Positions 1 through 29,326 of a stretch of 64,000 bases of DNA are shown here, one piece after another. The notes beneath the pieces were generated by a model. That model ran no database searches. It saw nothing but the letters and a program-made list of their open reading frames with translations, and was not told the origin of the DNA. A program made the translations under genes and the position numbers. Source of the DNA: a virus; IMG/VR virus record IMGVR_UViG_3300039412_000320; one strand, written 5' to 3'. Every line of letters starts with the position of its first letter. Position 1 is the first letter of the stretch.

Positions 1-1916
1 TTATTTCTCTCAACGTTGGCTATAATGCGGGTGCAGGAGCGCAACTCTATGTGGACGGGGTTTTATGGGCTTCTATTGCCACGGGAACCCCTAATCCAAC
101 TTACAATACAGAATTCTCAGTAGGGCTTCAAGGCACAGACACTAACGGAGGTTTTGAAGCCTACTATGACGACATTCTGGTGGACAATGGTTCTGTGACC
201 TTGGGGCCGGGCGGTGCGGTCTTGCTGCCACCGATTGCTGACTCCTCCGTGGGTACTTGGACAGCGGGGGCAGGCGGGGCAACCAATCTCTATAACGCCC
301 TCAAGACCTCGCCGCCTGCGGGGCTTGCTGATGCCTCGGCCACCAACACCAGTCAAATTCACAATTCAAACGCCACGGGCAATCAGGATTACAAAGCGCA
401 GTGTATGTCCTACCGAGCCGCAGGCGTAGCCTCCAACGCTACGATAAATGCCGTCATGGCTGTGGTGAATGATGGTACACCGACGACCTCTGCCCGTGCT
501 GGTGGAGTGTGGATAGACTCGAACCCTGCACAAAGTGCAGGTGGGCAAAGCTTCGAGTATGGCTATAGTGGGGGATTGGGGGCAATTGGAACTTTCCCTA
601 CGGGATGGAATACGCATTACGGGCCGTGCATCCAATCCCCTAGTGTCACGCTTTCCACTGCTCCTGTTGTTGCGGTTCGTAAGACCGATGCGAATGCTCA
701 GGTGGTTGACGTGGACTTTCTCGGCATCTACGTCGATTTCCAGAATGGCCCGTCGCAGCATGTGGTGATTTCGGGCTTGGAGATGGGGTCGCTATACGAA
801 GCAAACTCCTACAGTGGGTCAGGAACCATTGAAGTCATACCCGCCGCTAAACGTACAGGCAATTATGGACTTCATGCTAAGGCTGCGGCAGGACAGACAC
901 CCTACATCACTTTTACATCCCTCGATGGAAACGGGTCAAATATCATCCAGTTGGGGAGTGCCCGCTTCTATATGAAGCTATTAAGTCTTCCCGGCACGAC
1001 TCTTGCTATGTTTGGTGAATTCGGAAATATTAATAGCTGGATTATTGGTATCAATCCCACTGGAACGATTTTCGCTGGCTCATCGGCTGGAGGGGTATCG
1101 CCCAATAGCACTAATGCTCTCTCCGTAGACGGCCTCTGGCATTGTATCGCTGCTAATGTAGGCTATAACAACGGTCAGGGAATCCAACTCTACGTCGATG
1201 GGGTTCTGTGGACTAGCAAAAACACCTTTCCTTTTCTCAGTGGGTTATACAACCTTTGTTTAGGGTGTAGGACTGTTGACACCGTAGGCGGTTTTGAAGC
1301 TTATTTTGATGATTTACTTGTAGACAATGGGTCAGTCTTACTTGGTTTTGGGCAATCGGTTCTGCTTCTTCCTACGGCAGACTCCGCTATCGGTTCATGG
1401 ACTACGGGTAATGGGGGAACGTCAAACTTATTCAATGCGGTCAAAACCATCCCTCCTGTGGGTGTGGCTGATGCTAGTGCTACCAATACCAGTCAAATTC
1501 ACAATGTCAACGCTTCCGGTAACCAAGACTACAAAGCTACTTGTCAGACTTATTCTTCTGTGGGAATAGACGGCAGTTGTATCATCAATGGAGTTATGGG
1601 ATTGACAAACTGGGGGGCGGGGGTCGCCGGGACAAAGGTCGTCTCGGTGTGGATAGACTCCAATCCACCGCAAATAGCGGGTGCTGTGACAGGGAGATAC
1701 GGCGGGGGTGGAGGCATTGGCACCTTTCCATCCAATTGGGTAACCTACAATGGTGTGATCGCAGCTTTACCATCGCTTACGTTAACTTCTGGCCCCGTGG
1801 CGGCGGTGCGTAAAGTGACTTCCACTGTTTCTGCTGTTGATGTGGATTTCCTCGGTGTATATGTGGACTTCCTTCCCGGCACACCGGGTGTATCCAGCGC
1901 CTATTTCCTTGACTAG
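1..1916 (+). CDS. 5'-partial structural (fibre/lectin-like) protein with two tandem ~300-aa concanavalin-A/LamG-like repeats
   Basis: The frame is open from nt 3. The protein repeats internally ('QLYVDGVLW...GGFEAY(Y/F)DD(I/L)LVDNGSV...ASATNTSQIHN..NA(T/S)GNQDYKA...VWIDSNP...AAVRK...VDVDFLG(I/V)YVDF' occurs twice), so the true start lies upstream of the window. It is rich in NxT/S and Gly/Thr. Confidence 0.6.
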   Translation, partial: ISLNVGYNAGAGAQLYVDGVLWASIATGTPNPTYNTEFSVGLQGTDTNGGFEAYYDDILVDNGSVTLGPGGAVLLPPIADSSVGTWTAGAGGATNLYNALKTSPPAGLADASATNTSQIHNSNATGNQDYKAQCMSYRAAGVASNATINAVMAVVNDGTPTTSARAGGVWIDSNPAQSAGGQSFEYGYSGGLGAIGTFPTGWNTHYGPCIQSPSVTLSTAPVVAVRKTDANAQVVDVDFLGIYVDFQNGPSQHVVISGLEMGSLYEANSYSGSGTIEVIPAAKRTGNYGLHAKAAAGQTPYITFTSLDGNGSNIIQLGSARFYMKLLSLPGTTLAMFGEFGNINSWIIGINPTGTIFAGSSAGGVSPNSTNALSVDGLWHCIAANVGYNNGQGIQLYVDGVLWTSKNTFPFLSGLYNLCLGCRTVDTVGGFEAYFDDLLVDNGSVLLGFGQSVLLLPTADSAIGSWTTGNGGTSNLFNAVKTIPPVGVADASATNTSQIHNVNASGNQDYKATCQTYSSVGIDGSCIINGVMGLTNWGAGVAGTKVVSVWIDSNPPQIAGAVTGRYGGGGGIGTFPSNWVTYNGVIAALPSLTLTSGPVAAVRKVTSTVSAVDVDFLGVYVDFLPGTPGVSSAYFLD

Positions 1917-1984
1917 GCTTTACTAAGAAGAAATATAGAATAATCCAAAATTTCAGTATTATTACTTAGCATTACTATAGCCAG

Positions 1985-2030
1985 TTATACGTGGTTACAT
2001 ATAGCTACTTATGGTTATATGTAGTTGTGA
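1985..2030. repeat. AT-rich intergenic region with two ~20-bp direct repeats (GTGGTTACATATAGCTAC / ATGGTTATATGTAGTTGT)
   Basis: Seen directly in the 200-bp untranslated gap 1917-2120; a class B -10-like 'CAGTATTATTAC' lies at 1954-1965. Confidence 0.4.
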
Positions 2031-2120
2031 CCGGTTAAGGGAGAATCATGGGTGTAAAGTTTTCGGTCCGTTTTTTGTCATATTTGAACTATCTAAAACA
2101 CTTGTAGGGAGATAGTTCAA

Positions 2121-2768
2121 ATGTTTGTGTATTTAATATTTAATCGAATAAGCCTTAAGCTATACATCGGTAAGACCACGACATCCAACCTGGGTTTGTA
2201 TCTAAAAAAGAAAATTAGAGACGCTCAAAGGGGAACTTATCCCGGTAGGTCACACCTCTTTTCTGCAATGGAAAAGTACCCATCTACAGCTTGGGGGATA
2301 ATCCCGCTTATCTCAAATCTTACCACTAACGAGGAGCTTTGTTATTGGGAAACGGTTTTAATTAAAGCATTTAATACCCGTTGCCCGGAAGTTGGATACA
2401 ATATCTGTAAAGGTGGAGAAGGATGGACAGGAAGACATTCCGAAGAATCACGAAGAAGGATTGGAGAAGCCACTAGGAATAGACCCGGTCCGTGGCATAA
2501 TAGGCCAATGTCCAAAGAACATAGAAGGAAGCTAGGAGCAACCCATAAAGGTCATCCCAGTGGGATGTTGAATAAACACCACTCCGAGGAATCCCGCAAA
2601 AAGATGAGCAATGCCAAAAAGGGTAAACCCAGCCCTTGGAGGGGGAAACACTTTTCTGCCGAATCCCGTAAAAAGTTAAGTATTTCCCTTAAGGGGAAAC
2701 CATGGACAGAAAGGCGGCGCAAGGCGCAGGAGTTGAAAAGGAGAGCAAGTGAGACCACCAAACTTTAG
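2121..2768 (+). CDS. GIY-YIG homing endonuclease-like protein with NUMOD3 repeats
   Basis: N-terminus 'VYLIFN...LYIGKT' and 'GYNICKGGEG'; C-terminal repeats 'SEESRRRIG', 'SKEHRRKLG', 'SEESRKKMS', 'SAESRKKLS' are NUMOD3-type. A class A-like upstream motif lies at 2087-2110. Confidence 0.75.
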   Translation: MFVYLIFNRISLKLYIGKTTTSNLGLYLKKKIRDAQRGTYPGRSHLFSAMEKYPSTAWGIIPLISNLTTNEELCYWETVLIKAFNTRCPEVGYNICKGGEGWTGRHSEESRRRIGEATRNRPGPWHNRPMSKEHRRKLGATHKGHPSGMLNKHHSEESRKKMSNAKKGKPSPWRGKHFSAESRKKLSISLKGKPWTERRRKAQELKRRASETTKL

Positions 2769-5700
2769 CGTTTGTTTGATTGCAAGAAACGAAGCTCCGA
2801 ACCTCTGGAGAATCCACAAATCACTCAAAGAATTTCAGAAACGTGACGGCGAGGTGGTCCTCGTGGACACTGAGTCTACTGACAACACTCCGGCTGTAGC
2901 TCGTGCTTTAGGCTTCACTGTTTTCGAGGTGGGGGAGAAGTTTATCTTCACCATCCCGGAGAACCTTGCCAAGGCCATCAACACTCAGTTTGTCGTACCG
3001 CCCGAAGCTCCCATTGTCGCCGCTGGCGATAAGCTCTTTGATTATGCCGCCGCCCGCAATTATTCCGCTACCATGGCGAGCAACGATGTGGTATCCATGC
3101 CGGACTGCGATGAGCAATATACCCATCTGGATATCGACGCCATTGAACGCACCATTGACCAAGGGTTCCAGCAGATGGAATTTCACTTCATCTTCTCCCA
3201 CTATCCCAACGGTCAACCCGCTGTTCAGTTCCGGCAATGCAAGATGTACGACCGGCGTATCATGCACTGGCAGGGCATCGTCCATGAGGTTCTGGCGGGA
3301 AACGCCAAGCGCACCTACCTACCGCCCAACGTGCTTCTCTTGGAACACTTCCAAGCCCCGCAGTCACACCGCACCCGGTATCTCGCCGGGCTGTCTCTCG
3401 ATTGCTACCTCAATCAGGACAACGACCGTAACAGCCACTACCTCGGACGAGAGCTTATCTGGAACGGTCATCCCCGGTCAGCCATCAAAGAACTCACTCG
3501 GCATGTCAACATGAACCGTTGGCAACAGGAGCGGGGGCAGTCCATGATTTTCATCGGGGACGCCCACATGCAACTGGGGGAGGATGACAAGGGCATCGAA
3601 TCTTGGCACAAAGCCATCCAAATAGATGATACCCGGCGTGAGCCGTGGCTTCGTCTGGCGGATTACTACTGGAAGAAGAACAATCCGCAGCGGGTAGCCT
3701 GCTATTGTATGGCTGCTTTGGAAATCCCACCTAACGATTGCTATTGTAACGTGGGAGCGCATTACACGTATGAGCCGCATGAAAAACTTTACTGGGCGCT
3801 CTGGTGGCTGGGCGACCGGGAGAGGTCGAAAGAACACTGGAGGAAGGCGTTCGCCTACGACCCGACTAACCCCAAGTATCTTGCCGACAAGCAGTTCTAC
3901 GAGCCGACTAAATATGATTATCAAATGCCCGGAGGAGGTCAAGCCGCAGACGGCGGGGGAATCCAAGGATGGATGACCCACGGCGAGCTTGAATGGTTGT
4001 ACCATCAGGCGCAACGGGAAGAAATCCAAACCATCCTCGAATTGGGTAGCTGGAAAGGCCGGTCCACCCATGCTTTGCTTTCCGGCTTGAACGGCAAGGG
4101 CCTGCTTACCGCCGTAGATACATGGAAAGGCTCGGTTGACCCCCGTGACCAAACCAACGCCATGGCAAAGCAGGAGGATGTCCTCGGCGAGTTCAAGAAA
4201 AACGTCGGGGAGTTCAAGAACCTCGAAATCTGTCAGATGGAGAGCGCAGCGGCAGCGGAGAAGTTCCGGGCCGAGGGACGCACGTTTGACATGGTGTTTA
4301 TCGACGCCGGTCACACTTATGAGGAAGTCAAGAGAGATATCGAACTCTGGCGTCCACTTGCCAAGGTCATTCTATCCGGGCATGATTATACTAATGTTTG
4401 GGAAACCGTTAGAAAAGCAGTCGATGAGCACTGTGGGCGGACCTACCATGCCGAGAGCATTTGGTATTTGCCCGTTGAACCATTTCCACAAATCAAAGGT
4501 ACTTATTTCAAATCCCACGCTGAGATGCAGGAGAAGATTGAGAAAGGTGAGCCATTCTCCTATGTCAAGTGGAATGACGGGGAACAGCAGTGTATCGAAG
4601 GCGTAGAGGGGGCAACGTGTGACGGGCAGGCGTATAGTTTCGAGCTTAACTTAGCACTTAGGAAAGCTTACAACTTTCTCACCACTCTCCAGAACGTATA
4701 CATTAGCAACTGGAAAGAGTGGTTAGATGATAACCTCAATGACGGCGGTATACTTCTGCATAGGGAGAAGCGAGACCTCCAGCCCCTACACGATTTCTAC
4801 AAGGCCATAAAGGAGAGCGGAGTACAGAAGTTCCTCATCGCCCCGGCGAAATTGCAGGGCGCTGCCGACATGCTCAACGCTGAACTTATTGAGGTTCCCG
4901 AGCATGATGCATGGAGCAAGTATAAGGAAATCAAGGATGCCATGCTATCCAAGGTTCATACCCATGGCATCTTTCTGTTCAGTTGCGGGCTGATAAGCAA
5001 GGTGCTCATCGCTGATGCCCTCACGGCGGAGAAGGACATTTGCTGTCTCGATACCGGCAGCAGCTTTGACCCTATTTTCCTCGGACAAACCCAGACTCTA
5101 CAGGCTCCGCAAAGAGAGCTTCTGGACCTGTATGCCGACCTGCTCCCCGAGCAAAAGCAGTATATTCCCAAGAGCATTTTCACCATCTGGTTGTCAGAGA
5201 AAGAAGGCTTGCCGCCGCTCGTGGAGAAGTGTGTCAAGAGCCAGCAGATTCCCGGCTACGAACACAAGGTCTTGGGCCTAACCGATTGCCCCAAGGGTAT
5301 CCCCTATCTGGATGCCGCACTAGCTGCCAAGAAGTGGGTCAAAGCAGCGGACTACCTGCGCATTTGGTGGTTGAAGGAGTACGGCGGCATCTATGTCGAT
5401 TCTGACATGGAAATCCTGCCGGACAGGAACTTCAACCGTTTGCTTGGCAACTCGTTTTTCGTCTGCCGGGAAGACAACGGTTTTATCGCCAATAGTCTCA
5501 TCGGGGCGAAGAGGGGTCATCCCATCCTTGCGGAACATCTCGCCGAAGTGGGGGCCAAGTTCAAGGGTGATGATGACTACATTTTCCAAGCAGCACAGGA
5601 AATCCTCACCCCGAGGATAAGCAGTGCAGCACCCTCAGACCTGACAGTCAAAACTCTTCCCGCTCATGTCTTCTGTCCCTATAACCACCAAAATGGGGAG

Positions 5701-6417
5701 ATTGATGTACGGGATGACACCGTGGCTTTCCACCACTTTGCCAAAGCGTGGATTAAGGAAGACTACACTCGGGACTTCCTTCCCCGTGTCGCCGTCCTAA
5801 TACCCTCGCTGGGACGCCCGGAGGGCCTCCAGAAGTGTTTGGAGTCCGTAGACCACCTCTACTACCCCAAGCACTTGATTAAGGCATTCGTGGACGAAGG
5901 CGAGGGCACGGTAAGCCAGAAGGTCAACCGGCTCGCCGCCGCCAACCCGGACTTTGACGCTTACGTGTATGCGGCCAATGATATGGAGTTCGACCCGTGG
6001 TGTGTGTACCGGGCAGTCAAAGAAGGTCAGGGCAACCCACCCAAGGCTCACCCCTTCGAGACCCCGCCGCATTATCCCTTCGTCAAGGGATTGGTATCCT
6101 TCAACGCCGGACCGGTGTACCCGGATGAGGGGAACATCTGCGAACATTTCCTCATCAGCCGGGACTTGTACTTGAAGCTGGGGGAAATTTTCTCCGAGAA
6201 GTTTCACCACGTTGGCGTGGATAACCTTCTGTGGGTAAAGGCCAAGAAGCTTGGTCAGGTACTTCACTCTGAAACGGCAAAGATAACCCACCACCATTTC
6301 AGCAAGACTCACGTGATGGATGCTATCTACGAGAAGGGTTGGTCACAGGTGGATTCCGACCGGGCTATCCTCGCTCAAGAACTCAAAAAATTGGAAGAAA
6401 CTCCCACTGCAACGTAA
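2749..6417 (+). CDS. 1222-aa multidomain glycosyltransferase/methyltransferase (GT2 - TPR - class I SAM MTase - GT32-like DXD - GT2)
   Basis: GTG start preceded by AAGGAGAG. Domains read in order: 'FSVCLIARNEAP...EVVLVDTESTDNT...DCDE' (GT2); TPR-like helices; 'ILELGSWKGRSTHALL...VFIDAGHTYEEV' (class I SAM MTase); 'IWLSEKEG...AADYLRIWWLKEYGGIYVDSDMEIL' (Gly_transf_sug/DXD); 'AVLIPSLGRPEGLQKCLESV...KAFVDEGEG' (second GT2). Confidence 0.75.
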   Translation: MRPPNFSVCLIARNEAPNLWRIHKSLKEFQKRDGEVVLVDTESTDNTPAVARALGFTVFEVGEKFIFTIPENLAKAINTQFVVPPEAPIVAAGDKLFDYAAARNYSATMASNDVVSMPDCDEQYTHLDIDAIERTIDQGFQQMEFHFIFSHYPNGQPAVQFRQCKMYDRRIMHWQGIVHEVLAGNAKRTYLPPNVLLLEHFQAPQSHRTRYLAGLSLDCYLNQDNDRNSHYLGRELIWNGHPRSAIKELTRHVNMNRWQQERGQSMIFIGDAHMQLGEDDKGIESWHKAIQIDDTRREPWLRLADYYWKKNNPQRVACYCMAALEIPPNDCYCNVGAHYTYEPHEKLYWALWWLGDRERSKEHWRKAFAYDPTNPKYLADKQFYEPTKYDYQMPGGGQAADGGGIQGWMTHGELEWLYHQAQREEIQTILELGSWKGRSTHALLSGLNGKGLLTAVDTWKGSVDPRDQTNAMAKQEDVLGEFKKNVGEFKNLEICQMESAAAAEKFRAEGRTFDMVFIDAGHTYEEVKRDIELWRPLAKVILSGHDYTNVWETVRKAVDEHCGRTYHAESIWYLPVEPFPQIKGTYFKSHAEMQEKIEKGEPFSYVKWNDGEQQCIEGVEGATCDGQAYSFELNLALRKAYNFLTTLQNVYISNWKEWLDDNLNDGGILLHREKRDLQPLHDFYKAIKESGVQKFLIAPAKLQGAADMLNAELIEVPEHDAWSKYKEIKDAMLSKVHTHGIFLFSCGLISKVLIADALTAEKDICCLDTGSSFDPIFLGQTQTLQAPQRELLDLYADLLPEQKQYIPKSIFTIWLSEKEGLPPLVEKCVKSQQIPGYEHKVLGLTDCPKGIPYLDAALAAKKWVKAADYLRIWWLKEYGGIYVDSDMEILPDRNFNRLLGNSFFVCREDNGFIANSLIGAKRGHPILAEHLAEVGAKFKGDDDYIFQAAQEILTPRISSAAPSDLTVKTLPAHVFCPYNHQNGEIDVRDDTVAFHHFAKAWIKEDYTRDFLPRVAVLIPSLGRPEGLQKCLESVDHLYYPKHLIKAFVDEGEGTVSQKVNRLAAANPDFDAYVYAANDMEFDPWCVYRAVKEGQGNPPKAHPFETPPHYPFVKGLVSFNAGPVYPDEGNICEHFLISRDLYLKLGEIFSEKFHHVGVDNLLWVKAKKLGQVLHSETAKITHHHFSKTHVMDAIYEKGWSQVDSDRAILAQELKKLEETPTAT

Positions 6418-6427
6418 AACCTGCCTA

Positions 6428-6449
6428 TAGCCCTCTTAATTGAGGGCTA
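6428..6449 (+). promoter_or_regulatory. Perfect 8-bp stem hairpin (TAGCCCTC-ttaatt-GAGGGCTA) whose 3' arm contains the SD (GAGGG) of the collagen-like gene
   Basis: Inverted repeat read directly; ATG of the next gene at 6454 is 7 nt after the stem; no T-run follows. Confidence 0.55.
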
Positions 6450-6453
6450 AGGC

Positions 6454-8748
6454 ATGGCACTTGTCTGTGTATTCAATCCGGTTTCCAAACTCATCGACTC
6501 TGTAGAGGGACTCGTCGTCACCTTCGTAGGGACGTGGAGTATCAATGCCGTCTATCTTGGGGGCAATGTTGCCAGTTACGGCGGCTCCCTCTGGATATCC
6601 CTCCTTGACAACAACTCAGGAAATCAGCCCGACATTTCTCCCACATGGTGGGCGCAGTATGCCTCCTCCGGTGCCACGGGACCAACAGGACCCGGAAATT
6701 TTACAGGCTATACCGGACCTACCGGACCCAGCGGATACACAGGTTATACCGGCCCCGGTAATTTCACGGGTTACTCAGGGTACACGGGACCAAGCGGTTA
6801 TACTGGACCCAGTGGATATACAGGCTACACTGGTCCCGGAAATTTTACTGGTTACTCTGGGTACACGGGATTTTCTGGTCCCACCGGTTACTCAGGATTC
6901 ACCGGGTACACCGGCCCCGGTAATTTCACGGGTTATACCGGACCCATAGGTCCCTCTGGTTACACCGGTTACTCTGGCTACACCGGCCCGACCGGGCCGG
7001 GTAATTTCACGGGTTTCTCAGGATATACAGGATACACCGGTTATACCGGAGAAGCGGGAACGGCGGCGGCTACCGGAGCTACAGGTTACAGCGGGTATTC
7101 CGGCTACACCGGCCCCACGGGGCCGACTGGACCGGGCAATTTTACCGGTTACACCGGATACACTGGACCCAGCCACACAGGCTACACTGGTTACACAGGA
7201 CCCACGGGTTCCACCGGGGCTACAGGTTACACAGGTTTTACAGGACCCGGTTCCTTTACAGGTTACACAGGTCCAACCGGCTATTTGGGCTACACTGGAC
7301 CTTCCGGTTACTCGGGTTACACGGGATATACAGGGCCAGTCGGTCCTGTTGCTTATGGTGAGATGAGCATTCAAACGAATGCCACTGCCACAACCCTCAC
7401 CACGCAAAACACTTGGTATCAAGTAGTCAACTGGACATTAGGCAGTCTTTTCCAGAACATGACGGGAAATACCTCGTCCCCCGCTACACTGACCTGCACC
7501 ACCGGTCTAGCAGCCTTAACTTGCAGGGTACATTTTACCGGCAGCGTAACCGTCTCCGCTGGTTCTCAGACTTATCAACTGTCTGTATACAAAAATGGTT
7601 CTCAGTTGGTTGACCAGACAGTTAACATTACCTCCAACGGTGGTGGTGCCCCTGCTCTGACTTACCCCGTCTCCTTGTCGGGACTCGATACTATGGCGAA
7701 CAACGATACGTTTGCTATCTTTGCTCGTTGCACCACGTCCAACGCCGTTTCTCTAACCGTCACTCAAGCCAACTTTAACATCGCTACCACTGGTATTGGA
7801 CCGAGTGGACCTACAGGCTACAGCGGTTACACCGGCTATACTGGTCCGGGTAATTTCACGGGTTATACTGGTTACACAGGTCCTAATATCACTGGTCCAA
7901 CCGGACCCACAGGCCCCGGAAATTTCACGGGTTATACCGGAGCCACGGGTTACTCAGGACCAACTGGTTACTCAGGATACACTGGACCCACGGGTTATAC
8001 CGGCTACACAGGTTACACGGGACCGCAGGGAGCTTCTGCTTATGGCGAAATGACCATCGCCAATGAGACTGTGGTTCTTACCAATCAGGGAACATGGTAT
8101 CAGCTAATCAACTGGACTACTGGACAGCTTTCCAACATGACTGGGAATACCAGCGGTACTCAAACTTTGACCTGTACCACGGGTCTGCCCGCTATCGGTT
8201 GCAATACTATCTTCACCGGCTCATTAATCATAAGTACTGCCAATCAGGCCTATCAACTGGCGGTGTTTAAGAATGGCTCTATCCTCACCGAGCACGAGAT
8301 TGATGTTCTCGAAGATAGCACCACGGAACAGGTAGCCTTTGCCATCTCCGGTATCGACAGCATGGCAGATGGAGACTACTTTGCTATCTTTGCTCGCTGT
8401 ACTACCATTGGCTCCGTTACTCTTACGATTAACCAAGGGAACTTCAACATCATCTCCATTGGACCGGGAGCTATCGGGCCTACGGGTCCAGTGGGACCTA
8501 CCGGACCAACGGGTCCCGGTAATTTTACGGGGTATACAGGCCCCCTTGGTGCGACCGGACCGGTCAGCGGCTCCCCCATTACTCCCGTGCCCTTTGCTTC
8601 CCTCGGGTCAGCGGTGGGACTGCCGGGGCGTATCGCAGCGGTCAACAACAGTGGTGTAAACACTTGGGGCGGCACTGCCAATGGCTCCGGTGGTTTCACC
8701 GTGTTGGTTTGGAGCAACGGCTCACTGTGGACCGTCATAGGTTCTTAG
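6454..8748 (+). CDS. Collagen-like repeat fibre protein with two C1q/TNF-like (BclA C-terminal-like) globular domains
   Basis: Long runs of G-Y-T/G-P-T/G-P-S triplets punctuated by a recurring 'PGNFTG'; the collagen run plus ~140-aa beta-rich head ('AYGEM(S/T)I...TWYQ(V/L)(V/I)NWT...LTCTTGL...YQL(S/A)V(Y/F)KNGS...FAIFARCTT') occurs twice; the C-terminus is Gly/Pro-rich. Confidence 0.75.
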
Positions 8749-8793: not shown

Positions 8794-9672
8794 ATGTTTA
8801 TCTATTTAATTGTCAACCGAGAGACTGGTAAATACTACATTGGTCAGCACAAGGGGAAAGACTTAAAAAAGTACTTTCAAACCAAGTTATCGGATGCTAA
8901 ACATAATCGGGGAGGAAAGTCTCACCTATATGCTTCTATGCGGAAATATCCCTTACCTTCCTCTTGGTCTATACATGCCCTCCGCTCCGATATCCAGACA
9001 AAAGAAGAGCTTGACCAAACCGAAAAAGATTTCATTAGGTTCCTGCGGTCACAGGACCCAGAATACGGTTATAACATCTGTCGTGGAGGGGAAGGACATA
9101 CCGGACCGCTTTCTCAAGAATCCGTCAAAAAAATATCGGCTTCTCTTAAAAAGTTATGGGGTGGTTCCAAGGGTAAAGAACTCCGAAGAATAAGCGGGGA
9201 AGCATCTGACAAAAGATGGGCGCAACCGGGAAAAAAGGAACGGGCATCAGAAACAATGAGGGAAATCTGGCAGCAGCTAAAACACAGAGAACATGTTTTA
9301 GGTAAACTCAGAAACTACTGGTCAGGGATATCCGATAGTAAAAAGGCTGAAATCAGCAGTAGAATTTCTGCTACCTTGATGGGTCACTTCGTATCCGAAA
9401 AATCCCGAGTTAAAATGTCTTTAGCTCTTAAGGGAAAGCCTAGTTGGAATAAAGATAAAAATTTATCTAGGGAAACAAAGAACAAAGTATCCGTCTCGAT
9501 AACCAAACTTTGGGAAGACCCGCTATATAGGGAGCACATGGTTATAGCCGCTTCTCATCCTAAGCCATATCTTAGAAAGAGATTTTGTAAACATGGACAT
9601 GATACAAATGTTTGTGGAAGATACCCTAATGGCAACTGTCGAGGCTGCCATTTGAGATTACCTCATCTTTAG
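8794..9672 (+). CDS. GIY-YIG homing endonuclease (paralog family A) with NUMOD repeats and C-terminal Cys/His cluster
   Basis: 'MFIYLIVNRETGKYYIGQHKG...YGYNICRGGEG'; C-terminus 'CKHGHDTNVCGRYPNGNCRGCH'. Confidence 0.8.
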   Translation: MFIYLIVNRETGKYYIGQHKGKDLKKYFQTKLSDAKHNRGGKSHLYASMRKYPLPSSWSIHALRSDIQTKEELDQTEKDFIRFLRSQDPEYGYNICRGGEGHTGPLSQESVKKISASLKKLWGGSKGKELRRISGEASDKRWAQPGKKERASETMREIWQQLKHREHVLGKLRNYWSGISDSKKAEISSRISATLMGHFVSEKSRVKMSLALKGKPSWNKDKNLSRETKNKVSVSITKLWEDPLYREHMVIAASHPKPYLRKRFCKHGHDTNVCGRYPNGNCRGCHLRLPHL

Positions 9673-10448: not shown

Positions 10449-11435
10449 ATGGGAAGTAAGGGTACTTGTGGTGTCTATGTAATATGGGTAAAGGACGATA
10501 ACGGAAATGAAAAGCCCTATATAGGCAGCAGCAAATGGATGGAACATAGAAGGAAACAACATCTTCAAGCACTAGCTGTTGGAAAGCACCGTAACTATAA
10601 ACTTCGGCGGGCGTGGCGGGAGTACGGACCGCAAGCGTTTAGGTTTGAGGTCCTGTTTCCTTGTGAAGAGAATGAGAGATTTGTCTGGGAAGAGTTGATG
10701 ATTCGCTTCCTTGATTCTTTTCACAATGGATACAATCTAACCCCCAATGTCATGGACCTGTCAGTGATTCCCCGCTGCAACAGACCCCTGTCTGACAAAA
10801 CCAAGAAAAAATTATCTGAATTGGCATATAAAAAGTATGAGGCCGCCTCGGAGCATGAAAAGACATCTAAGTCGTTAAAGGAGTTCTGGGGTAACGCAGA
10901 AAACCGAGAATGTCTGTTAGCACCGTACCGTACTCCCGAATATAGGGCCAAGTGTAGTTGTCTTACCACCTTGTCTTGGCAGGATGCGGTCATAAGGACA
11001 CGAAGAACGGACGGTCTCAAGAAAGTTATGGCTACGACAGCTTACCGCCATAATCTTTCAGCTTCCTTGACGGGAAAGAAGAAATCGGCACAACACGCCG
11101 AGAATATAGCATTGGGGGCCAAGAAAAAATATAGAAACCCTGCGGAGAGGAAAAAAACCAGCGACTCCCTCCATACTCCCGATGCGCACGCCAAGCTATC
11201 CGAGAAATCCTTTGTGGCTTGGCAAAACCCGATTTATAGAAACCACCTAAGCGAATGCCGTCGTCTCCAATGGCTTAAACCGGGCGTGCGGGAAACAATG
11301 GGGGAAAAAATAGCGGCTGGTTTGGCCAAGCCCGGAGTACTTGAAAAACGAAACCAAAAAATCAGTGAAGGATTAAAGCGGGCGTGGGCGAGAAAAAAAC
11401 TTCTAAGGGTTAAAAGTATAGAAAACTCCCCATGA
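10449..11435 (+). CDS. GIY-YIG homing endonuclease (I-TevI/Seg-like) with NUMOD repeats
   Basis: 'GVYVIWV...YIGSS...RRKQH...FEVLF...GYN'; a class A-like motif lies at 10416-10440. Confidence 0.8.
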   Translation: MGSKGTCGVYVIWVKDDNGNEKPYIGSSKWMEHRRKQHLQALAVGKHRNYKLRRAWREYGPQAFRFEVLFPCEENERFVWEELMIRFLDSFHNGYNLTPNVMDLSVIPRCNRPLSDKTKKKLSELAYKKYEAASEHEKTSKSLKEFWGNAENRECLLAPYRTPEYRAKCSCLTTLSWQDAVIRTRRTDGLKKVMATTAYRHNLSASLTGKKKSAQHAENIALGAKKKYRNPAERKKTSDSLHTPDAHAKLSEKSFVAWQNPIYRNHLSECRRLQWLKPGVRETMGEKIAAGLAKPGVLEKRNQKISEGLKRAWARKKLLRVKSIENSP

Positions 11436-18154: not shown

Positions 18155-19321
18155 ATGGAATTATCTCCGACTCCATATACCCCCGAAACACAAATTCCCG
18201 GAACGCAGCTTATATACCTGCGTGAAAGCAATAGAAGGTCCAATGCGGGAAAACGGATGGTATGGGTACGATGCATCCTTCACGGAAATGAGTTCGAGGT
18301 CGTCTTGTCTCACCTAAAGTCCGGGCACACAAAGGGTTGCTTTCAAAATGAAAAGTGTATTCTTCATGATTTCATTCCGGGAAACCTATACCCCGGAACA
18401 GAGATAACATGTGTTCGAGTGGTGGGAACAAGGAAAGGGCAGACCATCGTTGCTGTTTGTTGCAAACACAAAGAATTTGAGGTTGCTTTGAAAGACCTTA
18501 AAAGCGGAAACACGAAAAGGGGATGTTGGGAGTGCGGGGTAGCCAGCCGGGCGGACAAGCAACGTAAATCGTCGGAAAGCATCCTTGTCGAATTAAAAAG
18601 TAGGTGGGGCAGTGAAACCTATGACTACTCCAAGGCTATATTTTACGGAACCCATGTCCCCGTCACCGTCATCTGCCATAAAACCGATAATAACGGGGTG
18701 GAACACGGAGGGTGGTCTGTTACTCCTCACAATCACATGAAGACCGGTTGTCCCAAATGCGGGGATGATGTCGGGGCTGAAAAGCGTAAATTCACTGAAA
18801 AAGAGTTTAAGGATAAGGTCAAGGAAGTTTGGGGAGACCAATACGACCTAAGTGAGCTTGACTACATCACTGCTCAAGGGTGGATTTACCCCATTTGTCC
18901 TAAATCAGGGCACGGGAAGTGGATGACGAGGGCGTACAGCTTTTTACAAGGGCACGGGTGCCCTGTATGCAGTGAGTCTAAGGGAGAAAGGGCTATACGT
19001 GAATATCTTGAGAAGATGGGGATTGCTTTTTTCCAAGAACAAACTTTTGGTGGTTGCCGAAACCACCTGCCCTTACACTTTGACTTTTTCCTCCCGGATA
19101 TTAAGACTCTGATTGAATTTCAAGGGGTGCATCATTATTGTCCGACTCGATTTGGTGGAATAAATCAGCAAGTAGCGGAAGAAAACTTTTCCAAACAACA
19201 GGAGCGAGATGTACTTAAACGACAGTGGGTAGCTGACAACGGTTTCCGCTTGATTGAAATTCCACATACAATTCAATTTGATTCCATTCCTTCTTATCTT
19301 GAGAAACTTCTAGTCATCTAG
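18155..19321 (+). CDS. putative nuclease (PD-(D/E)XK/Vsr-like C-terminal domain) with tandem N-terminal Zn-ribbon/'KSGxTK' modules; homing-endonuclease-like
   Basis: Duplicated 'GNEFEVVLSHLKSGHTKGC' / 'HKEFEVALKDLKSGNTKRGCWEC'; 'GCPKCG', 'GHGCPVCS'; C-terminus 'EYLEKMGIAFFQEQTF...FDFFLPDIKTLIEFQGVHHY'. Confidence 0.45.
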   Translation: MELSPTPYTPETQIPGTQLIYLRESNRRSNAGKRMVWVRCILHGNEFEVVLSHLKSGHTKGCFQNEKCILHDFIPGNLYPGTEITCVRVVGTRKGQTIVAVCCKHKEFEVALKDLKSGNTKRGCWECGVASRADKQRKSSESILVELKSRWGSETYDYSKAIFYGTHVPVTVICHKTDNNGVEHGGWSVTPHNHMKTGCPKCGDDVGAEKRKFTEKEFKDKVKEVWGDQYDLSELDYITAQGWIYPICPKSGHGKWMTRAYSFLQGHGCPVCSESKGERAIREYLEKMGIAFFQEQTFGGCRNHLPLHFDFFLPDIKTLIEFQGVHHYCPTRFGGINQQVAEENFSKQQERDVLKRQWVADNGFRLIEIPHTIQFDSIPSYLEKLLVI

Positions 19322-22224: not shown

Positions 22225-23199
22225 ATGAAGCAGTTCGCAGATGATGAATTGACCGACTTAGTACCACCCACTTCCCCCGTTCAACAAGCAGCAGCACCTC
22301 CCCCTCCCGCCGCTCCTGCTCCGCAGGCTCCGCCGCCCCCCGTGGCAACGGCAGCGCCAGCGCCCGTATTCACTGCACCAGCACCGGCACCTGTATTCAC
22401 CGCTCCCCTTCAAACCGCCAAAGTAAGTTCCATTGAAGACCTAGACCTTCCCGGCACCGCAGGGACAGCAATCGCCGCAGCGCCCACCTTTGCCGCCACA
22501 CCCGGCACGGAGTTGGTCGGACGGGCTATTGACTTTGACAACGCCGAACCGTTGAAGACGGGAGATGGATTGAGCCGCATCCGCCCGGCGAAGGGCAGTG
22601 GGAAGCCGTCTCGTTTCGCTTTAATCGGACCCCCGCCTTACGGCCCCGGTATCGCTCCTCGTGCCGCCCGCAGTCACTACGTTCCCACCAAAGATGGCAA
22701 GCGGAATTGCATTTGCCTCGCCGATGGCACTAATGACGTTGGACTCTGCTGCACCAAGTTGCAGGAAGAGGGCCGGACGCACATCATCCACCTCGCCCTC
22801 GAATACACCAACTGCAACCCCACCAACGGCAACTACCCGAAGGGGTACACTGGTCCAATCGAATGGAGGATTGGTTTCGTTGACCTCTCCCCCTCTCAGT
22901 TTAACACGTTGAAGGACAAGCCGCAAGAGGGTAAGTCCGTCTACGATTACGACTACGTGATGGTCATGAACGGCAACCGCTACGACTTCAACATCAAGTC
23001 GCCGGTCGCCCGCTGGAAGCTTGACCCCGAAGTGGTCAAGGCCGTTACCGAAGCGGTTCAACCCTTTGTCCGGGACGGCGGCGTGAAGCTTGCCAAGCGC
23101 CTCGGTACGAAGAAGTCTATTCTCGAATGGAAAGCGCTCCTCTCCGGTGTCGCCGTGGGAGCCGCTGAGGCCAGTCTGGACGATGTGGAAAGCATTTAA
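22225..23199 (+). CDS. hypothetical protein with Pro/Ala-rich N-terminus (possible virion protein)
   Basis: Strong SD AGGAGG; PPPP/APAP low-complexity region then a globular domain. Confidence 0.55.
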   Translation: MKQFADDELTDLVPPTSPVQQAAAPPPPAAPAPQAPPPPVATAAPAPVFTAPAPAPVFTAPLQTAKVSSIEDLDLPGTAGTAIAAAPTFAATPGTELVGRAIDFDNAEPLKTGDGLSRIRPAKGSGKPSRFALIGPPPYGPGIAPRAARSHYVPTKDGKRNCICLADGTNDVGLCCTKLQEEGRTHIIHLALEYTNCNPTNGNYPKGYTGPIEWRIGFVDLSPSQFNTLKDKPQEGKSVYDYDYVMVMNGNRYDFNIKSPVARWKLDPEVVKAVTEAVQPFVRDGGVKLAKRLGTKKSILEWKALLSGVAVGAAEASLDDVESI

Positions 23200-26753: not shown

Positions 26754-27059
26754 GTGGCTCTTTTTATTTTACTGTTTTTGGTCCTTGTAGTTCTTAATAT
26801 CTCTGATGGGATAACTACCTATATGGGACTTAAGAAAACGGAAAATGAGGAGGTAAACCCCATTGCATCTTGGTTGATGTGTAAAATCGGCAGTATTCCT
26901 GGAATTATTGTGGTGAAGGTCTTAGCCTTAAGCACCATTGCGGCTGGGATTTTCATTGTCGGTGTGAGGGGTGCCCCAGGGGTGGATATCACACTTTCTA
27001 TCCTGATAGCAGTTTACATTTGGGTTGTCGTTCATAACATCAAGGTTATTTACAAATGA
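26754..27059 (+). CDS. small integral membrane protein (3 predicted TM helices)
   Basis: Hydrophobic segments; stop/start overlap (ATGA) with the next gene. Confidence 0.5.
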   Translation: MALFILLFLVLVVLNISDGITTYMGLKKTENEEVNPIASWLMCKIGSIPGIIVVKVLALSTIAAGIFIVGVRGAPGVDITLSILIAVYIWVVVHNIKVIYK

Positions 27060-29326
27060 AACTATCCGGTAAGAATTTTCAACCATGGAAAGATTTCTCC
27101 CTTATTGTGGACGGGTTGACATTGATTGTCGGACCGTCGAATAAGGGTAAGTGTCTTGCTCCAAATACTCCTGTTCTTATGTATGACGGGACAAATAAAT
27201 TAGCAAAGAACATAGGTGTAGGTGACTTTCTTATGGGGCCGGATAGCACGCCTCGCACCGTTCTTAGTATTTCCCACGGGTTTGATGATATGTATGAGGT
27301 TTTGCCCAATAAAGGGGGCTTCGATGGTTCTTGGGGGTGTAATCAGTATCACATTTTGTCCTTGATTTGCCGATTAGATGGAAAAAAACGTCGTCTCAGT
27401 CCCTTACAGTTAAGACAATGCAGGGTGGAGATTTCAGTTAAGGACTTTCTTTCCAAAAGTGCTACCTATAAACGGAATGCCCGTTTGCATCGTTCGGGAG
27501 GTATAGATTTTAAGTGCCGGGTAGATAAAAAATTTGAACCTTATTTGGTGGGCTATTGGCTTGGCGATGGTACCACCGATTTACATAAATTAGAAGTAAC
27601 AACCGCCGACCTTGAGGTTGTAAACTATTGTCGAAAACTTGCCACCAAGTATGGTCTCCATCTTATACCCAATGATGATGATTCCTACCGATTTTCTACT
27701 AAACATAAAGGAAGTCGAAGTAATGCCCTTCTTAACCGTTTCCGGTTGTTAAAGTTGGTGGATGCAGACGGAAAATGCATACCACATAGCTATCTGGTTG
27801 GCTCAAGGGAAGATAGACTTTTACTATTGGCTGGGTTGCTAGATTCTGATGCTGGATTAGAACCGTCTCAATTTGCCTTTTGTTCGCAGTTTGAGCGACT
27901 TGCTAAACAAGTGGCATTTTTAGCGAGGTCTCTCGGGTTTAGGGCATCTATTTCTCCTAAGTTAAACAAACGATACAATAAGATATACCATACGGTTTTA
28001 ATTTTCGGGAATTTGCCTAGTATTCCTACTATCATAAAGCGAAAAAAGGCATTATCGCAATCCAAAAAATCTTGTTTAACAACGGGGTTTAAAATAAAGC
28101 ATAAAGGGTGGGGAGAATATTTCGGATTTGAGTTGAGCGGGGATGGGCTTTTTCTTCTTGGTGATTTTACTATAACTCATAATAGCTCCATCTTCCGTGC
28201 CCTGCGGGGGGTATTCCGCAATGAACTCCCGCAGGATTTTGTCCGTAATGGACAGGATGAGAAGATGGAAGTGACTCTTGAGGTTGAGGGTGTCAACGAC
28301 CCCATCAGGGCCACCCGGACCCGCAAGGGTTCCACCAAGTACGCCATTGGTGAAGATGAAAAGGGTAAGCCGATAGAGTATAAGGCTCTCGGCGATAGTG
28401 TCCCCGAACCCATGAAGGTGCTCAAGTATGGCACCGTCAAAGTGGGGGACACAACCATAGACCCCATCTTTTCTCAACAGAACAAGGCACAATTCCTCAT
28501 TGACCCCGACGCATGGAAGCCCAACGACCTGAATGCCATCCTTGGGGCCTTTGCCTCTACCGAAAAATTGGATGCAGGGAAGAAGGAAGCCAACCGGCGC
28601 ATTACCGAAAAGAACGGGGAAGCCCGAACGCTCGCCGAAGAAATCCGTGAGGCAGAGGAACGCCGGGGTAAACTTGAGAGGTTTAATGCCTCGGCACAGG
28701 ACTCCGCCCACACCGTGTCTGGTTATGAGGCAAAGGTCAACAGCTATGAGTCATTGTTGGCCTCGCTGACCGAGACACTTACAAGGACGAATCGGATAGC
28801 GAAGATGCGGTCCTTCATCCTCAAGCTGTCTGTGCCGGATGTATCCCCCATTGAGAAACAGGAGCGCCTCGCCCGGATGTATGCCGAGGCGGTAAAAATC
28901 CTCCGTCGCCGGGAAGTCACGGGACAGGTGGTACATGGCATTGACAATACTATAGTCCAGTGGGACCTTGTGGCTAAGGGGTACAAACGCAAGCAGGCGG
29001 TTCTATCCCTGTTGGAAATTGTCGAAAGAAAGGGAGCAAGCCCCAAGGAGTGCGGGGAGAAGTTAGAGGGTGTGCTACAAGAAGCCAACTTCCTACTCGG
29101 AGTCATTGCTCACTACCTCTCGGCGCTTAAGAACATCAACTTGTTGGCAGAGGCATTGAAGCTCCCCAGCAAGAAGAGTGAGCTTAAGTTTACGGAAGAG
29201 GAACTGGACGCCGCTAACGCCAAGGTTAACTCTTTGACGTTGCTTCTGTCCAAGGAATCCAAACCGAAATGCCCGGACTGTGGTACGGAGCTATGCTGCC
29301 CGTCTTGTCAACCGGAATCGAGGTAG
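27056..29326 (+). CDS. SMC/SbcC/RecF-family P-loop ATPase N-terminal half + coiled coil, interrupted by an intein
   Basis: Extein 'MKLSGKNF..LTLIVGPSNKGK|SSIFRALRGVF' gives an SbcC/gp46-like N-terminus; long coiled coil; ends 'CPDCGTELCCPSCQ'; no signature/Walker B region. Confidence 0.55.
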   Translation: MKLSGKNFQPWKDFSLIVDGLTLIVGPSNKGKCLAPNTPVLMYDGTNKLAKNIGVGDFLMGPDSTPRTVLSISHGFDDMYEVLPNKGGFDGSWGCNQYHILSLICRLDGKKRRLSPLQLRQCRVEISVKDFLSKSATYKRNARLHRSGGIDFKCRVDKKFEPYLVGYWLGDGTTDLHKLEVTTADLEVVNYCRKLATKYGLHLIPNDDDSYRFSTKHKGSRSNALLNRFRLLKLVDADGKCIPHSYLVGSREDRLLLLAGLLDSDAGLEPSQFAFCSQFERLAKQVAFLARSLGFRASISPKLNKRYNKIYHTVLIFGNLPSIPTIIKRKKALSQSKKSCLTTGFKIKHKGWGEYFGFELSGDGLFLLGDFTITHNSSIFRALRGVFRNELPQDFVRNGQDEKMEVTLEVEGVNDPIRATRTRKGSTKYAIGEDEKGKPIEYKALGDSVPEPMKVLKYGTVKVGDTTIDPIFSQQNKAQFLIDPDAWKPNDLNAILGAFASTEKLDAGKKEANRRITEKNGEARTLAEEIREAEERRGKLERFNASAQDSAHTVSGYEAKVNSYESLLASLTETLTRTNRIAKMRSFILKLSVPDVSPIEKQERLARMYAEAVKILRRREVTGQVVHGIDNTIVQWDLVAKGYKRKQAVLSLLEIVERKGASPKECGEKLEGVLQEANFLLGVIAHYLSALKNINLLAEALKLPSKKSELKFTEEELDAANAKVNSLTLLLSKESKPKCPDCGTELCCPSCQPESR
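27152..28183 (+). mobile_element. Intein (344 aa) with LAGLIDADG homing endonuclease domain inserted in the Walker A P-loop
   Basis: Begins 'CLAPNTPVLMYDG', ends 'ITHN' followed by Ser; DOD motifs 'LVGYWLGDGT' and 'LLAGLLDSDAG'. Confidence 0.8.

Follow-up and report, generated by a model that had tools for sequence, protein, structure and literature searches.

What does a phage do with a gene that fuses several glycosyltransferase (GT) domains to a methyltransferase (MT), placed next to a gene for a Thr-rich collagen-like protein? The question is raised by a stretch of 64,000 nucleotides (nt) from the IMG/VR virus record IMGVR_UViG_3300039412_000320, called the window hereafter. This DNA belongs to the large genome of an uncultivated phage, and encodes a helicase, a DNA polymerase, and terminase-like and portal-like proteins. 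Bases 1-8748 hold four open reading frames (ORFs), all on the + strand: the 3' portion of a LamG gene, a GIY-YIG homing endonuclease gene, the gene for an enzyme of 1222 amino acids (aa) at 2749-6417, and the gene for a 764-aa collagen-like protein at 6454-8748. The same set, with the GIY-YIG gene lying between the LamG and enzyme genes, had been recognized in an initial annotation made from the DNA letters, which proposed that the enzyme glycosylates the adjacent, co-oriented fibre. The proposal is supported by the homology of the enzyme to the protein glycosyltransferase SgtA, and by the two-way linkage of enzyme and collagen genes across diverse viral contigs. The locus is likely to be a phage-encoded module for the cytoplasmic O-glycosylation of collagen-like virion fibres. 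Given the relation to SgtA and the gene pairing in dozens of other phages, the fibres are probably sugar-coated.

Two other contigs are referred to throughout. L001 comes from the same phage, as it encodes an identical GT/MT protein, and shows the region 5' of the window. L003 is a 316,945-bp IMG/VR contig (IMGVR_UViG_3300041809_000571) encoding a relative of the enzyme with 92% identity. Megablast of the region against GenBank phages gave no near match, and tblastn of the enzyme just 9 distant, partial matches.

A five-domain enzyme related to SgtA

The enzyme features five catalytic domains, four with a GT fold and one S-adenosylmethionine (SAM)-dependent MT. The initial annotation had correctly placed a SAM methyltransferase here, and had counted one GT module too few (three). 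Module 1 (aa 1-395; 2749-3933, + strand) joins a GT2 domain, in which the DxD motif reads D119-C-D121, to tetratricopeptide repeats (TPRs). Both parts score above the Pfam cut-offs (Glycos_transf_2, E 4.5e-11, 43 bits vs 23.3; TPR_2, E 3e-9, 36.8 bits vs 27), and D119 and D121 are invariant across 42 homologues.

SgtA of Clostridioides difficile is a 358-aa protein made by a GT-A domain followed by four TPRs, and is encoded immediately upstream of bclA3. Recombinant SgtA transfers, in vitro, beta-O-GlcNAc from UDP-GlcNAc onto Thr of BclA3 collagen-region (GPT-type) peptides (PMC7157674). The sgtA gene was retrieved from a C. difficile genome (locus L084) via a published primer sequence, and a bclA3 gene with GPT/GAT repeats was confirmed to reside directly downstream. 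Module 1 and SgtA are aligned by BLASTP with an E value of 2e-15 and 20% identity (aa 5-388 vs 3-356), and the family profile of module 1 matches SgtA in hhalign over 343 columns (99.65%, E 4e-25; SgtA residues 3-355 of 358). The alignment spans the DxD motif (DCD vs DAD) and the whole helical TPR domain. Two further matches of the same profile are GmaR, which transfers O-GlcNAc to flagellin in Listeria (E 3e-15), and SunS, a peptide S-glycosyltransferase (E 5e-5). On sequence grounds, the nearest characterized relatives of module 1 are protein or peptide glycosyltransferases, the closest of which acts on this kind of repeat, and not the polysaccharide enzymes that the initial annotation had named as a finding that would speak against it. 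By analogy, module 1 is the predicted initiating protein O-glycosyltransferase, acting on Thr of G-x-T repeats.

Module 2 (aa 400-575; 3946-4473, + strand) is a class I SAM-dependent methyltransferase (Methyltransf_24, E 1e-17, 65.1 bits vs a cut-off of 26.3), with a weak match to the O-methyltransferase family Methyltransf_3. The family profile matches the PDB entry 6g7d (E 4e-6), which we take to be a mycobacterial sugar O-methyltransferase; a literature check on the identity of this entry found nothing. Module 2 is predicted to O-methylate a sugar, a sugar hydroxyl being the presumed substrate. Module 3 (aa 585-795; 4501-5133, + strand) has both a GT-D fold and the DxE metal-binding motif, within the residues K-W-N-D-G-E, and its sequence similarity to the DUF1792/GT-D family lies below the family cut-offs. 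The GT-D fold is otherwise known from the extension of O-glycans on serine-rich adhesins. In contrast to the DUF1792/GT-D enzymes of the streptococcal serine-rich-repeat adhesins, the phage GT-D domain is fused into a larger enzyme, and is found in about half of the homologues. Module 4 (aa 796-1000; 5134-5748, + strand) is a GT32-like GT-A glycosyltransferase with a DXD motif, above the Pfam cut-off for both Caps_synth and Gly_transf_sug, with Och1 and the large clostridial-toxin glucosyltransferases as fold relatives. Module 5 (aa 1005-1222 and stop; 5761-6417, + strand) is a GT2-like GT-A domain in which N-D replaces DxD, and which features invariant His and Asp residues; its profile matches solved GT2 structures (E 1e-6). 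The GT folds beyond module 1 are seen in a confident structure model (pLDDT 89.6). The enzyme sequence has no transmembrane-like segment, and no above-cut-off match to any polyprenol-phosphate-linked family.

The enzyme has 267 homologues in a large protein collection, all metagenomic, and at least 465 relatives in IMG/VR. Glycosylation modules of this kind had been called unusual; they are common in uncultivated phages. Among 120 homologues, module 1 was found in 119, module 5 in 118, module 2 in 102, module 4 in 61 and module 3 in 59. Modules 1 and 5 are near-universal, and the other three are shuffled; domain order is highly varied. In viral loci seeded on collagen genes the commonest form consists of modules 1 and 5 only, and enzyme ORFs of ~570-610 aa are frequent in loci seeded on the enzyme. 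The enzyme of the window is an expanded version of this conserved two-GT core. A constant core accompanied by shuffled domains fits a scheme of priming, first extension, and then variable decoration; as phages gain, lose and reorder modules 2 to 4, the glycan would become diversified.

The collagen-like protein and its linkage to the enzyme

All domains of the collagen-like protein are given here in + strand coordinates. An N-terminal domain (aa 1-72; 6454-6669), weakly CBM5/12-like (CBM_5_12, E 0.0026, below the cut-off), is followed by collagen region 1 (aa 73-300; 6670-7353; Pfam Collagen, E 6e-27), head 1, an all-beta globular domain (aa 301-446; 7354-7791), collagen region 2 (aa 447-528; 7792-8037), head 2, a paralogue of head 1 (aa 529-672; 8038-8469), and a last segment (8470-8748, stop included) in which a short third collagen region (aa 673-704) precedes a C-terminal domain of 60 aa (aa 705-764). 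Region 1, the predicted acceptor, is made by G-Y-T, G-P-T, G-Y-S and G-P-S triplets and by PGNFTG breaks. When runs of at least 4 triplets are counted, the protein features 89 triplets. Tyr (42) and Pro (34) prevail in X position, Thr (51) and Ser (19) in Y position, where they make up 79% of residues (70/89).

The PGNFTG motif occurs nine times, partly with a period of 27 aa (81 nt), and an 81-nt tandem repeat is found at 6720-6935. In register, the motif reads G-P-G / N-F-T / G-Y-T, a triplet having Asn in place of Gly. With Asn at a Gly position and a partly regular spacing, PGNFTG is primarily a regular break in the helix. The initial annotation had rightly noted its recurrence and had left the choice between N- and O-linkage open. 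By analogy, O-linkage to Thr is favoured and N-linkage disfavoured, because no GT domain of the enzyme resembles the known type of cytoplasmic N-glycosyltransferase. Cytoplasmic N-glycosyltransferases of the HMW1C type belong to GT41 and have a GT-B fold, and we know of none with a GT-A or GT-D fold like those of the four domains described here.

The two heads are 51% identical to each other. A word-indexed search with head 1 gave no matches, the heads have no direct sequence match in Pfam or, as a two-sequence profile, in PDB, and the head profile does not match the C-terminal domain of C. difficile BclA3. Exhaustive HMMER searching identified 217 relatives among 1.84 billion representatives; the domain is C-terminal in many, and collagen triplets precede it in some of those aligned. 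Nine of the 41 aligned relatives match Pfam BclA_C (PF18573; best E 5e-8). The profile made by the 41 sequences gives only insignificant C1q/TNF matches in PDB (C1q-related factor, E ~0.7). The AF2 model of the head, built from a two-sequence alignment, is poor (pLDDT 54.6), and its fold matches (TM-scores of ~0.38-0.58) are therefore only suggestive; they are headed by TNF-like lectins, the Sf6 needle knob and Pgp3, and C1QL2 ranks 48th. The heads may well be jelly rolls of the BclA_C/TNF-C1q-like type, which is plausible from transitive homology and a weak fold match. Two heads had been predicted and two are present; they can be called C1q- or BclA-like in this indirect sense only.

A further collagen gene, with a product of 450 aa, lies just 5' of the window (L001:1579-2931). 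This protein has the same N-terminal domain, repeats and PGNFTG breaks, and ends with its own, different globular domain of ~115 aa. One candidate substrate is thus encoded on either side of the LamG and enzyme genes. The N-terminal domain is common also to the collagen proteins L003:4895-8671 and L004:4986-8801, the 60-aa C-terminal domain only to the window protein and L003. Enzyme-linked collagen proteins in relatives carry pectate-lyase-like (L003:4895-8671, L022:10071-13442) or GDSL/SGNH esterase (L004:4986-8801) domains. The common N-terminal domain and these fusions argue for interchangeable receptor-binding fibres or spikes. They suggest that the proteins of the relatives are collagen-stalked depolymerase/deacetylase spikes, the distal domain being swapped on a common, glycosylatable stalk. 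The PHROG matches of the window protein are to tail-fibre families.

Linkage between the two genes was assessed in viral loci seeded on the enzyme, with flanks of up to ±10 kb. To be scored as collagen, an ORF had to contain 8 or more G-x-y triplets, with Thr/Ser making up 50% or more of the Y positions. Such ORFs were found in 54 of 72 loci with module 1 (48 of 62 groups after dereplication at 90% identity), and in none of the 9 loci with the methyltransferase only. The nearest collagen ORF is always on the same strand as the enzyme gene, with no more than 3 ORFs between the two, and the genes are directly adjacent in 11 loci. Almost all collagen ORFs (70/73) lie within 4 kb of the enzyme gene, where they are ~25-fold denser than at 4-10 kb; density per 10 kb is highest in the first 2 kb (1.73), drops to 1.07 at 2-4 kb and to 0.15 at 4-6 kb, and is 0 from 6 to 10 kb. 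Thr dominates the Y position of the linked collagens in nearly every locus. All-against-all clustering of the flanking ORFs ranks the collagen family as top neighbour, with 58 loci vs 24 for the next family; the other conserved neighbour families receive essentially no annotation from PHROGs or Pfam.

In the reverse test, seeded on collagen genes, module 1 was found within 10 kb in 34 of 70 loci, and in 22 of the 31 in which both flanks are covered. Several of the loci without module 1 represent additional collagen genes of jumbo contigs whose enzyme gene lies ~100 kb away. Further G-Y-T collagen genes (loci L089 and L134) mark the contig of the 92% relative (IMGVR_UViG_3300041809_000571) at ~100 kb from the enzyme gene, which suggests that one enzyme serves several fibres in trans. 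G-Y-T collagen is encoded also by another jumbo contig, IMGVR_UViG_3300014160_000001 (L133), on which the enzyme gene was not located. The module is found also on contigs of 20-45 kb.

In the window the enzyme and collagen genes are separated by a 36-nt spacer with no predicted terminator. The spacer contains, at ~6426-6447, a perfect 8-bp hairpin (TAGCCCTC-ttaatt-GAGGGCTA); as it lacks a T-run, it could be an element for RNA processing or translational control.

One cultured phage has a similar locus. The lake phage DSL-LC01 of Actinomycetia (OQ999401) has two genes annotated as collagen and, three genes further downstream on that strand, a module-1 homologue; the translation of the first collagen gene features GPT repeats. 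A gene annotated as tryptophan halogenase is located between the collagen genes and the GT2-TPR homologue (L158, 93-109 kb), and genes for a UDP-galactopyranose mutase, another GT and two methyltransferases reside nearby, on the opposite strand. In DSL-LC01 the same pathway may be encoded in dispersed form, together with a sugar supply of its own.

The following mechanism is proposed. The TPR domain of module 1 would recognize the unfolded or trimerizing G-x-T/S repeats of the adjacent and upstream collagen-like proteins, and module 1 would transfer the first sugar from a nucleotide sugar to the hydroxyl of Thr or Ser in Y position. By analogy with SgtA, the sugar may be beta-GlcNAc donated by UDP-GlcNAc. 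The tethered modules 5 (GT2-like), 3 (GT-D) and 4 (GT32-like) would extend the glycan, and module 2 would O-methylate a sugar, to yield a short methylated O-glycan at many of the ~70 Thr/Ser repeat positions. The glycosylated trimeric fibre, with its putative BclA_C/TNF-like heads, would be built into the virion as a host-recognition or surface fibre. Domain identities, the relation to SgtA and the gene linkage are established by the data above, whereas the acceptor, the sugars, the reaction order and the placement in the virion are predictions.

LamG gene, homing endonucleases and surrounding genes

The first ORF (1-1916, + strand) corresponds to the 3' 1.9 kb of a gene for tandem LamG (concanavalin-A-like lectin) domains. 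It runs off the window, as no stop is found upstream of base 3, and starts ~0.4 kb further upstream. The full-length protein, 769 aa, is encoded at L001:2931-5240 and matches Pfam Laminin_G_3 in two stretches (E 4e-13, 50.2 bits vs a cut-off of 27.6); the fragment encoded in the window alone has no Pfam match at E < 0.01. The protein is made by a duplicated unit, a LamG domain plus a second, non-LamG region, and the openings of the two copies have nearly the same sequence. A single-unit homologue of 397 aa is found at the same position in L003, and LamG ORFs were detected in the enzyme-gene flanks fetched from 16 related loci. No collagen, coiled-coil or other fibrous segment is visible in the protein. 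The description of the product as a tandem LamG-like fibre protein is therefore correct for the LamG domains and unsupported for the fibre. The tandem LamG protein is a recurrent, non-obligate lectin-like neighbour of the enzyme.

The gene at 2121-2768 (+ strand) encodes a free-standing GIY-YIG/NUMOD3 homing endonuclease (NUMOD3, E 9e-18; GIY-YIG, E 0.007). In L003 no gene is found between the LamG homologue and the enzyme, and because it is absent from this 92%-identical relative the endonuclease gene is a real insertion. It entered after about codon 7 of the GT gene and left the GT ORF intact. The window retains, 5' of the endonuclease gene, the ancestral ribosome site, the ATG and about 7 codons; this remnant (2048-2067, + strand; ATGGGTGTAAAGTTTTCGGT) corresponds to the start of the GT gene in L003 (ATGGGCGTAAAGTTTTCGGT..., MGVKFSVCLIARNEA). 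The 3' end of the endonuclease gene provides the AAGGAG, the 5-nt spacer and the GTG start (2749) of the present GT ORF, the N-terminal codons of which were recoded by the insertion (VRPPNFSV replaces MGVKFSV). A group I intron around 2121-2768 was considered and rejected: Rfam detects none in the interval 1900-2900, even when matches up to E <= 1 are considered besides those at the gathering threshold, and the non-coding DNA around the gene (~54 nt between the remnant start and the ORF, ~12 nt after it) is too short. The gene is therefore a free-standing insertion, a mobile passenger that contributes no function to the module.

A second mobile passenger, the GIY-YIG-like/NUMOD3 homing endonuclease gene at 8794-9672 (+ strand; NUMOD3, E 5e-8), resides past the collagen gene; the N-terminus of its product resembles that of the 2121-2768 protein. 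The interval between the collagen and helicase genes holds one ORF of at least 120 aa in L003, three genes in the window, two of which are of the GIY-YIG type. Selfish elements are unusually dense in the region, with three GIY-YIG genes and one HNH gene in 19 kb (2121-2768, 8794-9672, 10449-11435, 18155-19321). Just upstream of the window, the gene at L001:128-1579 carries an intein with an HNH domain.

A scan for promoters and terminators gave counts not above those expected from shuffled sequences, and nothing convincing between the genes. No RNA family, and hence no tRNA gene, was detected by Rfam at gathering thresholds in the whole 64 kb, an absence worth noting for a genome segment of jumbo-phage size. 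Pfam analysis of ten other ORFs of the window identified only RecA-like and clamp-loader-like proteins, which serve DNA replication and recombination, and no nucleotide-sugar enzymes. The ORF at 22225-23199 has no family match; its product features an Ala/Pro-rich low-complexity N-terminal third, and the DNA a local high-GC patch with negative GC skew. The terminase-large-subunit-like protein encoded at 27056-29326 is long (756 aa), and residues 362-534 match a PHROG exonuclease family; it may therefore be a fusion or carry an insertion.

Known systems, rival explanations and meaning

Collagen O-glycosylation by SgtA on BclA3, the glycosylated BclA filament, viral GT/MT enzymes and the glycosylation of mycobacteriophage virions are already known. 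As in the SgtA-BclA3 pair, the phage GT2+TPR gene adjoins, and is co-oriented with, a collagen gene with Thr-rich Y positions, and the fibre may likewise carry heads of the BclA_C family, to which the phage heads are tied by transitive homology only. In contrast to SgtA, the phage GT2+TPR unit is the first of five fused catalytic domains, and the host is a phage and not a spore-former. Repeats are G-Y-T/G-P-T with regular PGNFTG breaks in the phage fibre, GPT/GAT in BclA3, and the phage fibre has in addition two internal heads and extra terminal domains.

In Bacillus anthracis BclA, GPT repeats carry O-linked rhamnose-anthrose oligosaccharides, and the C-terminal domain is TNF/C1q-like. The phage protein similarly combines a Thr-rich collagen stalk with putative BclA_C-type heads. 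The BclA glycan ends in the methylated sugar anthrose, a parallel to the methyltransferase fused in the phage enzyme. The heads encoded in the window are themselves below Pfam significance for BclA_C, and, whereas BclA-type filaments combine a single C-terminal head with an N-terminal anchoring domain, both phage heads are internal, in a protein with three collagen segments that ends in the 60-aa domain. The GT2 domains of Listeria GmaR and of SunS from Bacillus SPbeta match the module 1 profile, and GmaR also pairs GT2 with TPR; these are single-domain enzymes, the substrates of which are flagellin and the sublancin peptide, respectively. Soluble multi-domain GT/MT fusions are encoded also by chloroviruses: PBCV-1 A064R is a GT-GT-methyltransferase that builds the capsid glycan in the cytoplasm (PMC9614988). 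The resemblance of the phage enzyme to A064R and A111/114R is architectural only, as the chlorovirus enzymes serve a eukaryotic virus, in which they elongate the N-glycans of the major capsid protein, and feature three domains, compared to five catalytic domains plus TPR in the phage. Mycobacteriophage capsid and tail-tube subunits carry glycans at their C-termini, according to the account of Freeman et al. 2023 given in PMC12619734. As described there, glycosylation is phage-encoded in that case too, but affects the C-termini of capsid and tail-tube proteins, and not collagen repeats. Full-text literature searches retrieved no account of SgtA-type enzymes that phages encode in linkage with collagen-like fibres. 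In papers on related aquatic phages, such GTs are read as DNA-modifying or O-antigen-modifying (PMC10202952, PMC7029224).

Several data weigh against O-glycosylation of collagen-like virion fibres. Identity to SgtA is just 20%, and donor sugar and acceptor specificity could differ. The phage is uncultivated, and the fibre glycan is predicted from sequence. The families matched by module 4 are mostly known from the synthesis of polysaccharides and glycans (Caps_synth, Och1). The collagen protein is a presumed, rather than a demonstrated, part of the virion, and the PHROG tail-fibre matches are largely driven by the repeats. The module lies amid replication genes, with the terminase-like gene ~18 kb and the portal-like gene ~27 kb away. 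No genes for nucleotide-sugar synthesis are found among the scanned ORFs, and as many ORFs of the window fall outside the scan this is weak evidence either way. Lastly, 14 of the 62 dereplicated loci have no collagen neighbour, some being truncated contigs and some possibly having other substrates, and in PaBG no gene annotated as collagen adjoins the module-1 homologue.

The distance from the terminase-like and portal-like genes, and the location amid replication and homing-endonuclease genes, would suit a collagen protein that is glycosylated but is not a tail fibre, and that decorates a jumbo-phage capsid as a fibril or whisker, or is exposed on the infected cell without entering the virion. 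Giant-virus fibrils and "hairy" jumbo phages are precedents, and the layout with two heads, as beads on a string, is unlike that of classical tail fibres. This is possible, if unlikely, as in relatives the same N-terminal domain and collagen stalk are fused to pectate-lyase and esterase domains of the tailspike type; the presence of the module on contigs of ordinary tailed-phage size (20-45 kb, completeness not established) also speaks against it.

A role of the enzyme in modifying a surface polysaccharide of the host (O-antigen, capsule, teichoic acid or another envelope glycan), for example against superinfection, is improbable. Enzyme and fibre genes would in that case share only a hypervariable island devoted to host interaction. 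Such a polysaccharide role is the usual reading of phage GTs found beside tail-fibre genes (PMC7029224, PMC10202952). Modules 4 and 5 have fold relatives among polysaccharide GTs, and module 4 matches Caps_synth and GT32. Module 1 is in contrast homologous over the full length, TPRs included, to protein O-glycosyltransferases, and the enzyme lacks both a membrane segment and an above-cut-off match to polyprenol-phosphate-linked families. Fibre genes in general are not what the enzyme is linked to: its neighbours are G-x-T collagen genes, which always share its strand and, with few exceptions, lie within 4 kb.

There is similarly little likelihood that the enzyme glycosylates other virion proteins, the collagen genes being mere neighbours. 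Such targets would be in line with the glycosylated C-termini reported for phage capsid and tail-tube subunits (Freeman et al. 2023, cited in PMC12619734), and about one fourth of the loci have no collagen neighbour. However, collagen G-P-T repeats are the very substrate of SgtA, the characterized homologue, Thr prevails at the Y position of linked collagens in almost all loci, and no capsid or tail-tube gene was recognized among the conserved neighbour families.

The last alternative is that the enzyme glycosylates phage DNA, producing hypermodified bases that evade restriction. To our knowledge, GT2+TPR, GT-D and GT32 are not among the families known for DNA glucosylation, which counts against this role. 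DNA glycosylation, a common role of phage GTs in the literature (PMC10202952, PMC12619734), is hardly credible here, as no adjacent base-modification genes were found and the strong collagen linkage would stay unexplained.

O-glycosylation of the phage's own collagen-like fibres is the reading to which the evidence points, and bears on routine annotation, in which phage GTs near tail-fibre genes are taken as DNA- or O-antigen-modifying. The module is widespread rather than exceptional, and, if its proposed function is true, hundreds of viral metagenome GTs now assigned to cell-wall biosynthesis would be re-annotated. Phage virion glycosylation would extend from mycobacteriophages, the only group for which a report was found, to many environmental phages and to receptor-binding structures, adding a post-translational layer to host range and to the evasion of immunity and defence. 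The enzyme would also be a natural five-domain glycan assembly device, with swappable modules, for the glycoengineering of collagen-like scaffolds. More speculatively, and at present with rather low probability, many aquatic phages, both jumbo phages and those on 20-45-kb contigs, perhaps actinophages, might carry short methylated O-glycans on the collagen-like fibres that bind their receptors. Glycan diversity would arise from the shuffling of GT and MT domains in an "assembly-line" enzyme, and the glycan would aid host recognition or shield the fibre from proteases and from lectins of the host or the environment; the LamG neighbour would read or organize it. Should receptor-binding fibres prove to be coated with glycans, fibre glycosylation would be a general, previously unrecognized layer of phage host-range determination.

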